From positions 146,563-210,562 of the IMG/VR virus record IMGVR_UViG_3300010965_000001: DNA of 64,000 bases; one strand, written 5' to 3'. Position 1 is the stretch's first letter; every line of letters begins with the position of its first letter. The position numbers were made by a program, and so were the translations under genes. Shown in pieces: positions 4,816 to 43,815 of this stretch. The notes under the pieces are model-generated. The model was given only the letters and a program-made list of their open reading frames with translations, did no database searches and had not been told where the DNA came from. The DNA comes from a virus (lineage: Duplodnaviria; Caudoviricetes).

Positions 4816-5379
4816 TTATATTGGTAATACTAATCCAGGTCCTACAGGTGTGACCACTGGTTGTGCTAATAAATATTGAACTTGTGCCGCTGAGGCAATT
4901 CCATTTTGAACTTTATTTGCAATTTCTATGATACACGCGTCACCTTGTGACAACTTAATAAACTCATTTTGAATTGTTTGTGCCGCGTAATTCTGTGCGG
5001 CTAAAATCAATCCTCTACCAAATGCACCAAAAAGTGCGGCTACTGCAGGTGCAGGAATATCAAATGCTTTCAAGAATGACAAGTCAGGGACTTGTGGTAA
5101 CTGTGGAGCACCTGGAATTTGTGGTAAATTATTGTTATTTTGATTCAATACAGGGCATCTATTTGTCTTTAACCGTGCATTAACACTTGCCGCGTTCTTT
5201 AATCCATCTAAAGGGTCACCATCCCCATTCAACACATCGTCAAATGATATTGGAAGTAACGTATCAAGTGGATTTTCGGGGGCAACGTAACTTGCACTTG
5301 CCTGTAAATAAGTATCAAATGTCGATAAAAGATTTCCAGTATTAGTGGAAGGATATATACAATATGTTGTTAGTGTCAT
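4816..5379 (-). CDS. Hypothetical virion protein
   Basis: 187 aa ORF, coupled to upstream gene. Confidence 0.6.
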   Translation of the reverse strand: MTLTTYCIYPSTNTGNLLSTFDTYLQASASYVAPENPLDTLLPISFDDVLNGDGDPLDGLKNAASVNARLKTNRCPVLNQNNNNLPQIPGAPQLPQVPDLSFLKAFDIPAPAVAALFGAFGRGLILAAQNYAAQTIQNEFIKLSQGDACIIEIANKVQNGIASAAQVQYLLAQPVVTPVGPGLVLPI

Positions 5380-23810: not shown

Positions 23811-24193
23811 GGTGGACTAGGAGGGGTTCGAACCCTCGTGTTGAACAAACACCAATTAAAAGACTACATGCTTAGTTTGATTCTGCGGAACGTCATAAAC
23901 TTGTAAGAATCTAACAAGATACAAGAAAATCTATTCTGCTTTTGAATGGTACAGATAAACCATTTGTATCTACAACGTCTTATTTTTTGTTCTGACTAAG
24001 GTAAATAAGAACCTTAGGCTGCGTACGCGTATTCGGCGTTCACTGCTTCACCCATGATGAACGCCATAGCATCATCAAATGTGAATGAAGATTTCTCTTC
24101 TGCGTTTATTTGTTTTGCACCTTTTAAAGAGTTTATTGCTCCCTCTGCATGCCTTCTAATCTATACTTATCCAGTCGATTCCATATCTAGCCC
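23811..24193 (-). ncRNA. ssrA: tmRNA
   Basis: 5' GGGCTAG pairs with 3' CTAGTCC-A (G3:U70); T arm GAGGG-TTCGAAC-CCCTC; resume context AATAAAC-GCA; tag ORF 24014-24103 ends YAYAA*. Confidence 0.95.
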
Positions 24194-24202
24194 AAACCGC
24201 TG

Positions 24203-24514
24203 TTAGACGATTTCTTCACCAATAAGTGTTGCTGTAAGACCTGTTGCTGCAGTTAAGACGGTTGGTAATACAATGTCTTTAACCTTGATTTCAAGTGCAA
24301 CTGAATACACTGTTGACTGTCCATCAGCCTTTGAACCAATTCTAACTAATACAGATGCCAACGTTGCATCAAACAATACAATATTGTCTGCAACATCTTT
24401 TAACATATCATCAAATACAACTGAATACGTTACACCACCATCAATTGACTGTTCAAGAACCTGTGTATCATTTCCACCAGGAATCCATGCAATATTAAAC
24501 TTTTTCATCAACAT
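24203..24514 (-). CDS. Hypothetical beta-rich protein
   Basis: Start moved to MLMKKF (GGAGG RBS); TATTTATA upstream. Confidence 0.6.
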   Translation of the reverse strand: MLMKKFNIAWIPGGNDTQVLEQSIDGGVTYSVVFDDMLKDVADNIVLFDATLASVLVRIGSKADGQSTVYSVALEIKVKDIVLPTVLTAATGLTATLIGEEIV

Positions 24515-24657
24515 AATAATTATCCTCCACAATAATCTAATTAAGTAATATAAGAATTTTATAACTGTTTTCATGTCTATAAATATCAACTTAAAATTAT
24601 TTAATGGCTTCGCACAGCAAAGAACGCTGTGTTTATTTTTCAATTATTTAATAACTC

Positions 24658-24908
24658 TTTACAGCCTAAAAGCCATTCTTCACCCTTGAAGGGAATAATT
24701 TTGATTGTGCCTTATCAACGTAAGGGGTTTCGACCGTTGAGTTTACATCAAATCTTTCGGTAGACAACGATAACTTATCTTATATACTAAGACTACAAAC
24801 CGTTTGTGGCGTCACAGTTACGAATAACTTCTACCTCTTCACAATGCCTTCGCATTCACCTTACGGTGCCTCCATTTTTACGCTCTTGGTGCGTTCACTG
24901 TGTGCTCT
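24658..24908 (-). ncRNA. Unassigned structured RNA, ~250 nt
   Basis: Closing TACAG/CTGTA, inner CACAG/CTGTG; hairpins CACC-GTAA-GGTG, AATGC-GAAG-GCATT, AGTTA-TTCG-TAACT, TCAACG/CGTTGA. Confidence 0.55.
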
Positions 24909-24911
24909 GTA

Positions 24912-25115
24912 TTACGATTGTGGGTGGTCTTTATACCAATCTGCTTCTGACTTTTCAAACCATTCTTGTGCCATTCTGTCAAATTCTTCCCTAGAAATCG
25001 GAGGAGAGTTTTCTCCATCCAACGATTCAATTAAAATTTGTTCAATCTCTTCTTTTGTAAAATGTGGTCTATCTTTCCATTCAATTGTATGTACCTTCAT
25101 TCTCATCTTGACCAT
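24912..25115 (-). CDS. Hypothetical protein
   Basis: 67 aa; overlaps thyX stop. Confidence 0.55.
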   Translation of the reverse strand: MVKMRMKVHTIEWKDRPHFTKEEIEQILIESLDGENSPPISREEFDRMAQEWFEKSEADWYKDHPQS

Positions 25116-25768
25116 CCCATTGCTTTTGCAATATCGGGAAACTGTTCATTGAATATAACCATTATTTGTTTTGCGATTTCTGTATGTTCAAGTTGTGTGC
25201 CGTGTTCCATTCTCAAATCAAGATAGTGTATCCAACTCCGTGCGCTTCCCGTCATATACATCGTTGTGGCTAAGTTCGTGGGTAAAAGGAATCTCGCACA
25301 TTCTTTTGCGATACCCTTATCAAGTGCATTTTGATACTTGTCAAATGCTACATTCCAAACTGTTTCCTGTGCATCTAAGAACCATTGTTTAGTAGCATCA
25401 TCCAAATCATCGACACTATTCTGTCGATTCTTTTCATCTTGTCGCCTTGCTTGTTGTGGGAGATAGTTAGTCATTTTTGCATAACGACCAGAAAATTTTT
25501 GGAAGGTAAAGGAGCGGTGACGGAGCATCTGCTCTGCGATAGGCATCGTTGTGGTAATTTCCACCGTCATAAATGCGTGTTCAAAGATTGACCAATGATT
25601 GTGTTGAATACAATAACGGAGCAACCCCGAGACAGTATCAAAATTCATTTGATTACTTGGATTACTTACTCTTGCTACAAAGCCAGTAACTTCTTGGGCA
25701 CTCTTATTAATCAAATCTCCAGCCCCTTGTGTGATACTAACTAATTTAGTAGTTGGTTGCTCTGTCAT
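25103..25768 (-). CDS. thyX: FAD-dependent thymidylate synthase
   Basis: HWSIFEH, RHRSFTFQKFSGRY, ARFLLP; start moved to MTEQP (GGAGG RBS). Confidence 0.95.
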   Translation of the reverse strand: MTEQPTTKLVSITQGAGDLINKSAQEVTGFVARVSNPSNQMNFDTVSGLLRYCIQHNHWSIFEHAFMTVEITTTMPIAEQMLRHRSFTFQKFSGRYAKMTNYLPQQARRQDEKNRQNSVDDLDDATKQWFLDAQETVWNVAFDKYQNALDKGIAKECARFLLPTNLATTMYMTGSARSWIHYLDLRMEHGTQLEHTEIAKQIMVIFNEQFPDIAKAMGWSR

Positions 25769-26033
25769 ACGCCTCCGTCCAATCTTTATCTTCAACAAAA
25801 TAGTTATCTAACAAGTACGAACAGAGTAAAAGTAAATCCTCTGGTTTTTCTGGAAGAATTAACCAACCAGCACACCATTCGTCTGCTGAGTATTCACGGT
25901 ATGCGAATTGTATATCAAGGTCATCCACTACCGCATTGAGTTCATTAAATCCTACACGGAATCGCTCAACATCATCGGGATAGTCAATCATTGTAGGAGT
26001 ATTTTTTAATCTATATTTCTTAATTAATCCCAT
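25746..26033 (-). CDS. Hypothetical protein
   Basis: 95 aa; YS.DEWCAGWL. Confidence 0.55.
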   Translation of the reverse strand: MGLIKKYRLKNTPTMIDYPDDVERFRVGFNELNAVVDDLDIQFAYREYSADEWCAGWLILPEKPEDLLLLCSYLLDNYFVEDKDWTEAYDRATNY

Positions 26034-42955: not shown

Positions 42956-43815
42956 TTAAAAGGTTGAGAGATTACACCTTCTACGCATTTCCTTTTCGTA
43001 GATTATAGTGACCTTGCGGGTCAGTTTCCTACTTTCTCCACCAGCGTTCAGCTCGAGTAGAAATGCATGACTTCCGTTGTTTTTAACGGTGACGGTACCG
43101 ATATGTATGAGCCTACTCAATCCTTGTCAATTCTCCCTGCCTTGCGAGCAGTTAATCCTTGCGGGGAATAGATGCAGACTTGAATTAAATTCCTACGCCT
43201 TGCGGGTTTCAGAACTCTCCATTCCTTTCGGTGGAGATTTAAGCCATTTTTGTTCTCATACATGACCACGACTTTGCTGTTTTTAATTGTCTTGGGATTT
43301 GAACCCAATCTTTAGTTCCATATACTAACGCTCAACCATTTGAGCTAAGACTGTGCAACTCACAAAAGACGTGCGTGGTCAGTGGTTCCATTCTCTTTTG
43401 GAAAACGATATGCCACACGCCCTGTATCTTTCGTCTGCTCGACTACTCAACGGATTTTCAAGATTTTGGTGCTTATGGAACAACCACACCAACACCAACC
43501 TCTTTCAATCTAAATAGAAGCCCTTATTTTGCATCACTCGGACAACTACTCTCCCCTTCATTTCTCGTTCATCGTCTCGTTTGGTATCTGCTTACTCGGC
43601 ACCACCCGCTAGTCCAGTCCTACGGAGTTACCCTCGGTCTGTTCGCAGCGAAACTTCTGACATACTTCCAGCAGGATTAGTGGCTGAAAGACTCCGAAAC
43701 TCGGTTTGCATAAGTGACCAATTGAGATTGGCGACGCCCTGTGAGCGGGTTAAGTCTTTTACCATATTACTACGGCTTATCTTCTCCCTTGCGGGAATGG
43801 ATGTCATACCACCCA
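42956..43815 (-). ncRNA. Large ornate ncRNA, GOLLD-like (~860 nt), with embedded tRNA-like module
   Basis: GC-richer, no credible CDS, five cGCAAg tetraloop hairpins, tandem promoters upstream, T-run end, flanks the tRNA array; family inferred from size and context only. Confidence 0.6.

Follow-up and report, generated by a model that had tools for sequence, protein, structure and literature searches.

The window, the whole 64,000-nt stretch of DNA analysed here, is the last 64 kb of a phage record that is complete in IMG/VR (210,562 bp) and that represents a large, uncultured freshwater myovirus. Its nearest cultured relatives, Microcystis phage Mel-JY01 and Flavobacterium 'immuto' phages, together with one 484-kb uncultured phage, are only 35–39% identical to it in the baseplate protein. 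We studied a gap in a gene series in which every feature lies on the minus strand and the order of transcription is thyX, a 67-aa ORFan, the gap, a 103-aa gene and tmRNA:

25103–25798, minus: thyX (Pfam Thy1)
24912–25115, minus: orf67, a 67-aa acidic ORFan that overlaps the end of thyX and lies directly upstream of the block
24517–24911, minus: intergenic gap of 395 nt that contains the candidate RNA block
24646–24908, minus: candidate structured RNA block of 263 nt, marked by the absence of an ORF, a GC step, a low coding score and the point at which relatives diverge
24612–24632, no strand assigned: terminator-like hairpin CACAGCG/CGCTGTG, with a T-run on the plus strand, between 11-nt direct repeats
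24203–24514, minus: 103-aa gene for a single Ig-like domain protein, downstream of the block, with its own GGAGG ribosome site
23811–24193, minus: phage tmRNA (Rfam RF00023 at 111 bits, also found by ARAGORN)

As a sequence-only reading of this DNA had placed it, the block directly follows a stop codon and is close to the tmRNA: orf67 ends with TAA at 24912–24914, the block starts 3 nt past it and the tmRNA is 465 nt off. The tmRNA itself starts 9 nt past the stop of the 103-aa gene. Further along are a 35-gene tRNA array, 3 kb from the block, and a genuine GOLLD RNA (RF02032, at 42961–43425 of the window).

Both small proteins that flank the gap can be described further. The orf67 product is strongly acidic (net charge about −6) and its frame has a coding score of +6.3; among 5.8 billion proteins it has no homolog but itself, and neither Pfam nor PHROG gives a match. 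The 103-aa protein consists of one Ig-like or FN3-like domain. It has three small homologs (102–105 aa), and it also matches repeated domains (5–18 stretches) in giant proteins of 818–3356 aa, with E values down to 4e-16; it may be a capsid-decoration or adhesion-type domain.

A non-coding block of distinct composition

The block is non-coding, compositionally distinct and modular. Its GC content is 40.3%, against 24.0% in the adjoining spacer (24517–24645) and 35.9% in the two flanking genes, and this step in composition, together with the divergence point in relatives described below, suggests about 24646–24908 as its better limits. Under a three-periodic Markov coding model trained on 81 long ORFs of the phage, the best of the six frames scores −14.5 bits per 100 nt, within the lowest 2–3% of genome windows and akin to tmRNA (−10.4) and GOLLD (−17.4), whereas real genes score +4 to +17, with +6 to +17 for orf67, the 103-aa gene, thyX and orf95 in their true frames. 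The earlier statement that there is no credible CDS is borne out, with 4, 7 and 8 stops in the minus-strand frames of about 24646–24911 and a negative coding score. The same model detects no hidden reading frame in either half of the block, and its two longest open pieces have no tblastn match in 50,697 phage records. With neither residual coding signal nor such a match, a recently decayed gene is unlikely.

Known RNA classes and related phages

None of the known RNA classes searched for accounts for the block. A cmscan search of Rfam 15 (4227 models), proposed with the sequence-only reading as a check, gave no match: at gathering thresholds the scan of the window is empty in 24517–24911, and a permissive scan of 24450–25000 (551 nt, E ≤ 10) returned only noise (a nematode snoRNA, 11.6 bits, E = 7.6). 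Among the classes without a cmscan match are RNase P, SRP, 6S RNA, tmRNA and tRNA-like RNAs, and ARAGORN finds no tRNA or tmRNA in the block. That RNase P and group I core motifs are lacking, as had been noted from the letters, agrees with the absence of any RNase P or RF00028 model match at E ≤ 10.

Group I introns of phage thymidylate-synthase and nucleotide-metabolism genes are a natural comparison, being likewise about 250 nt long, with GNRA-type loops, and placed beside a thymidylate synthase gene. We rejected this candidate on several grounds. Nothing is interrupted at the locus: orf67 ends cleanly, the gene downstream brings a GGAGG of its own and begins with MLMKK, a start common to its homolog, and stops occur in all frames between the flanking ORFs. 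In addition, there is no RF00028 match at E ≤ 10 and no endonuclease gene. Two further classes were rejected through their protein partners, with positive controls in both cases: Y RNA or YrlA, since the complete 210-kb record has no Ro60 (TROVE, PF05731), and retron msr/msd or group II intron RNA, since it has no reverse transcriptase (PF00078) either. A type III toxin–antitoxin RNA or origin iterons were rejected because there are no tandem repeats, only a two-copy 11–24-nt repeat around the hairpin that follows the block.

Looser parallels exist. T4 encodes RNA C and RNA D ('species 1 and 2'), small stable phage RNAs beside tRNA genes that have no known function. These are like the block in being phage-encoded, in having no ORF, in belonging to the RNA-gene part of a large myovirus genome and in apparently being co-transcribed with their neighbours. 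They differ in being about half its size and inside the tRNA cluster, whereas the block lies between thyX and tmRNA, 3 kb from the tRNA array. GOLLD, ROOL, raiA, OLE and HEARO resemble it as multi-domain folded RNAs on phages near tRNA genes, but the block is two to three times shorter than GOLLD and the other large ornate RNAs, has no model match at E ≤ 10 and lacks a family of relatives. Structured 3′ UTRs with intrinsic terminators share its position directly after a stop codon with a hairpin next; the block far exceeds known protective 3′ hairpins in length and also branches more, and here the terminator-like hairpin is a separate, exchangeable module.

The collection of homologs that had been suggested for a covariation test yielded none beyond strain variants at about 90–99% identity. 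Searches for the block found no homolog in IMG/VR, JGI metagenomes, GTDB genomes or GenBank phages, and no paralog in the phage's own genome by blastn or covariance model. Nothing useful came from blastn of the gap and the tmRNA against GenBank phages, and no useful locus from the flanking proteins as queries in IMG/VR and JGI metagenomes. Exact 20–24-mers from three parts of the block had no match in IMG/VR, and we discarded as chance two 20-mer matches, one in a JGI metagenome contig that is a GC-rich IS (L045) and one to Nocardia in GTDB. Neither did nhmmer with the block over 333 kb of related loci find anything. We also built a covariance model on domains 1 and 2 (described below) from the single sequence and ran it over the genome of this phage, Mel-JY01, a Flavobacterium immuto phage, LR756508, an IMG/VR relative and 12 loci; apart from itself it picked up just one match, of 14 bits and inside a coding gene. 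A published set of 10,006 viral structured-RNA candidates was obtained with an approach that needs clusters of homologs, of which the block has none (PMC10690425).

Syntenic phages place the block in a narrow lineage. The nearest ThyX, in ENA, is 83% identical, and the other ThyX contexts belong to unrelated phages. In the syntenic contigs L061–L064 ThyX is 65% identical and the tRNA-rich neighbourhood is common to both, and thyX is followed there by two small ORFs, tRNA-Leu(CAA) and tmRNA, with nothing that resembles the block. In L061 those small ORFs are not similar to orf67, and its tmRNA and tRNAs show no likeness to the block by nhmmer. Homologs of the 103-aa gene in two other contigs (L058, L059) lie directly after another gene, with no upstream gap. 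Absence from syntenic relatives and the gapless 103-aa homologs together suggest that the block, with orf67, is an accessory of a narrow lineage.

The L061–L064 contigs (ENA and JGI, up to 62 kb) are of interest in themselves as a second, better-sampled lineage of at least 24 contigs, which shares with this genome the tRNA island, a YkuK RNase H-like gene, thyX and the phage tmRNA, and which could serve as a comparison set for this phage's other odd RNAs. At 4960–5070 of L061, between the small ORFs and tRNA-Leu/tmRNA, four to five GTTGTACA-like words stand behind G-rich runs; they may form an array of binding sites or mark a promoter region.

Predicted fold and strain-level variation

The minus strand of the block is predicted to fold into three separately closed domains and a tail:

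24840–24902, minus: domain 1, a possible four-way junction, in which CACA/UGUG closes the hairpins ACGC..GCGU, CACC-GUAA-GGUG and AUGC-GAAG-GCAU
24759–24835, minus: domain 2, a four-way junction, in which GGUAGA/UCUACC closes the UUCG hairpin, GUG-ACGC-CAC and a long bulged hairpin
24816–24829, minus: the UUCG hairpin, with a compensatory change in one X3 contig (24829 T>C, 24816 A>G, 24817 G>A)
24702–24750, minus: domain 3, a hairpin on a weak basal stem, UCAACG-[14-nt loop GUCGAAACCCCUUA]-CGUUGA
24646–24696, minus: 3′ tail with small hairpins, CCCU-UCA-AGGG at 24683–24693

The hairpins first noticed in the letters, including those with GUAA, GAAG and UUCG loops, are all present, these three on stems of 4–5 bp. 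The small hairpins are ACGC/GCGU, CACC-GUAA-GGUG, AUGC-GAAG-GCAU, AGUUA-UUCG-UAACU and GUG-ACGC-CAC, to which are added GUCUUA-GUAUA-UAAGAU nested in AACGGU/AUCGUU, UCAACG-[14 nt]-CGUUGA and CCCU-UCA-AGGG. The nested long-range helices of that reading also reappear in the partition function as two predicted enclosing helices, GGUAGA/UCUACC (P = 0.80) and CACAGUG/CAUUGUG (P = 0.51), each of which contains three hairpins. In domain 1 the first two hairpins have pair probabilities of 0.91 and 0.99, and the closing helix, at 0.51, competes with the GAAG hairpin; for this domain z = −2.0 when folded as the minus strand, against −0.4 as the plus strand. Helix probabilities in domain 2 are 0.66–0.98 (z = −1.95), and the 6-bp helix of domain 3 has P = 0.89 (z = −1.65).

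Over the whole length the predicted structure is unexceptional. The minimum free energy z-score is −0.59 for 24658–24908, −0.65 for 24646–24908 and −1.47 for 24590–24915, and 56/200 shuffles fold as well as the block. Calibration within the same genome gave −3.8 for tmRNA, −0.8 for GOLLD and −1.0 for a coding piece of thyX, and since an undoubted GOLLD is also weak by this measure, whole-length z cannot decide for or against a real RNA. The nine tetraloop hairpins of the block correspond to about the 90th percentile of genome windows, two GNRA/UNCG hairpins per 263 nt are seen in 6% of this genome's minus-strand windows, and the long-range complements CGUAAGG/CCUUACG are at chance level only. 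The description of a multi-hairpin structure thus holds for the predicted hairpins and helices, while neither fold energy nor hairpin count goes beyond chance.

Strain-level relatives were found in 15 other sequencing runs from lake water, sediment and other habitats that carry small shares of the locus 31-mers (one sample, probably the source, has the locus in full); among the runs carrying parts of the stretch, none is recorded as RNA. The four runs we examined gave short, low-depth contigs with 90–99% identity to the window. The block is conserved at 90–99% in the short contigs of runs X3 and X7, and similarity stops at 24642/24646. In X3, two contigs match from 24642/24646 rightwards and continue into unrelated sequence leftwards, and two others match up to 24589 with unrelated sequence rightwards. 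X3 contig 5 is identical over 24646–24694 and X3 contig 6 is unchanged over 24700–24778. In the more distant X4 contig 8, which aligns over 24596–24696 before turning into unlike sequence, the 3′ tail is the only part of the block that can be aligned.

One of these variants bears on pairing. A 120-nt X3 contig (24749–24868, depth about 3) has six differences, four of them listed. Two of the four, 24829 T>C and 24816 A>G, fall on paired partners and turn A-U into G-C on the minus strand; 24817 G>A turns the neighbouring G-C into G-U on the minus strand, which is an A-C mismatch on the plus strand; and the fourth, at 24810, lies in the ACGC loop. When four substitutions were placed at random in simulation, a double compensatory change came up at least once with p = 0.014, and at least once without any disrupted pair with p = 0.005; for six substitutions, the value for one or more compensatory pairs is p = 0.037. 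Domain 2 with the four listed changes keeps an identical minimum free energy structure (−17.9 vs −18.5 kcal/mol), and on the plus strand the variant loses the UUCG hairpin. Because the hairpin is kept on the minus strand and lost on the plus strand, where G-U becomes A-C, the variant points to the minus strand. Two listed changes outside this contig's span, at 24695 and 24699, fit no confident predicted helix. These data argue for a minus-strand pairing constraint on one helix, the UUCG hairpin, as read from one contig of depth about 3 with 4/6 differences listed.

The hairpin that follows the block behaves differently. It is flanked by 11-nt direct repeats, AATTATTTAAT, at 24595–24605 and 24642–24652, and in the X3 relatives the 52-nt piece 24590–24641 is replaced by other sequence, the swap being bounded by the window's AATTATTTAAT repeat. 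The visible ends of the replacing sequence, GAGAAAAAAGCAAGAA and TTCTTGCTTTTTTCTC, are reverse-complementary, which suggests that a different, longer hairpin stands there. With similarity ending at 24642/24646 and a different hairpin next, the block behaves like a self-contained module with an interchangeable hairpin after it, and 24590–24652 resembles a small terminator cassette that can be swapped. The ATTAAATAATT repeat does not amount to a motif of the whole genome (9 matches vs 8.7 expected).

Alternative readings and a putative role

Our preferred reading takes the block, about 24646–24908, for a genuine structured RNA element of the minus strand that is non-coding and confined to this phage lineage, and we consider its chances evenly balanced. 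Of the earlier proposal of a new phage ncRNA, the non-coding and structured character is supported by the coding score, GC content, boundary and compensatory change; a discrete functional transcript is putative, and the next-closest syntenic phages are without the block.

The block could also be non-functional, either a worn remnant of a lost gene or mobile cassette or plain spacer, with hairpins such as any 260-nt sequence would have. The fold statistics (z −0.6, 56/200 shuffles folding as well) and a hairpin census at only about the 90th percentile are consistent with this, as are the lack of homologs in the collections searched, the absence of the stretch from syntenic relatives and the mosaic nature of the region, where cassettes are swapped at short repeats. 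However, no residual coding signal is left in any frame or half and no tblastn match was found, GC content is 16 points above that of the adjoining spacer in a phage whose spacers are AT-rich, and the phage genome is densely packed. The compensatory double change with its wobble-preserving neighbour also argues against it, and we regard this explanation as unlikely on balance, if well short of negligible.

A cis-acting element has a smaller probability again. It would be a 3′ UTR that, with the terminator, shields the thyX-orf67 mRNA from 3′ exonucleases, or a read-through leader controlling the 103-aa gene and tmRNA. Its start 3 nt past a stop codon and the presence of a hairpin at the same place in two variants would suit a cis-acting role, and since the tmRNA also lies 9 nt past a stop, co-transcription with mRNA appears usual in this phage. 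A 7-bp complement to the downstream ribosome site, at 24917–24934, would suit it too, but a complement of this length is expected by chance. Moreover, 260 nt in three multi-branch domains far exceed what mRNA protection needs, the 103-aa gene has its own promoter-like and ribosome sites and homologs elsewhere without such a leader, and the X3 relatives swap the sequence between the block and this gene.

A promoter scan around the block found none of good quality, and the hairpin after the block has its T-run on the plus strand; both count against the preferred reading. Promoter-like sites occur at chance density (10 found vs 7.5 expected). One weak candidate on the minus strand, picked out from the letters and missing from the scan's list because the last base of its second hexamer is not T, is placed as follows:

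24930–24958, minus: weak promoter-like site TTGAAA-17 nt-TATAAA, inside orf67

On the plus strand, a 10-of-12 promoter-like match at 24761–24788 and a terminator-like site at 25409–25428 would allow an antisense RNA running into orf67 and thyX. We consider a functional plus strand very improbable: sites of this kind are no denser than chance predicts, the minus-strand fold is 8 kcal/mol more stable than the plus-strand fold, only the minus strand tolerates the change from G-C to G-U, and the hairpin of the variant is lost on the plus strand. Slimmer still is the prospect of one or more micro-proteins, from a 20-codon frame at AUG 24855 or a 33-codon TTG frame at 24666–24767, for although a GGAGG (24869–24873) stands 13 nt before AUG 24855 and two of the four X3 changes listed are silent in the 20-codon frame, that spacing is long, the remaining two replace Cys by Arg and Ala by Ser, coding scores are negative in all frames and the 37-residue open stretch 24669–24779, which includes the 33-codon frame, has no tblastn match. 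The 20-codon frame inside the block, MRRHCEEVEVIRNCDATNGL at 24855–24794 on the minus strand, is probably not a gene. Even jointly, the antisense and micro-ORF readings carry little probability.

If the block is the minus-strand structured RNA that we prefer, its RNA would most likely be the 3′ end of the thyX-orf67 transcript, or might start at the weak internal promoter at 24930–24958, and it would end at the hairpin following the block. Its fold would comprise two four-way junctions and a hairpin with a large loop, each closed as a domain of its own, and it may persist as a stable RNA, which would fit a phage with about 35 tRNAs, a tmRNA, GOLLD and other odd RNAs. As for its putative role, our best guess is an RNA that acts in trans or as a decoy, rather than one that regulates neighbouring genes. 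In a bolder version the block would found a new class of phage-encoded RNAs with several domains that act in trans, for example as a decoy or sponge or a small ribozyme; we hold this to be unlikely. As a decoy or sponge it would have as putative target a host RNA-targeting defence or an RNA-processing enzyme, and would be part of an arsenal of tRNAs, tmRNA, GOLLD and re-threaded tRNAs.

If real, the block would add a new RNA family to the orphan stable RNAs of large phages, though not demonstrably a new kind of system. As a single-lineage candidate, thinly supported, it has its immediate value as a target for deeper read recruitment and transcript mapping. Large phages that bring tRNA sets, a tmRNA and giant RNAs such as GOLLD seem to devote much to RNA, and for most of these RNAs no job is known; a further orphan folded RNA beside tmRNA would add to this picture of RNA-heavy large phages. 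Should it prove to be a stable trans-acting molecule, it would open a new way of learning how such phages manipulate RNA metabolism or defence in the host.
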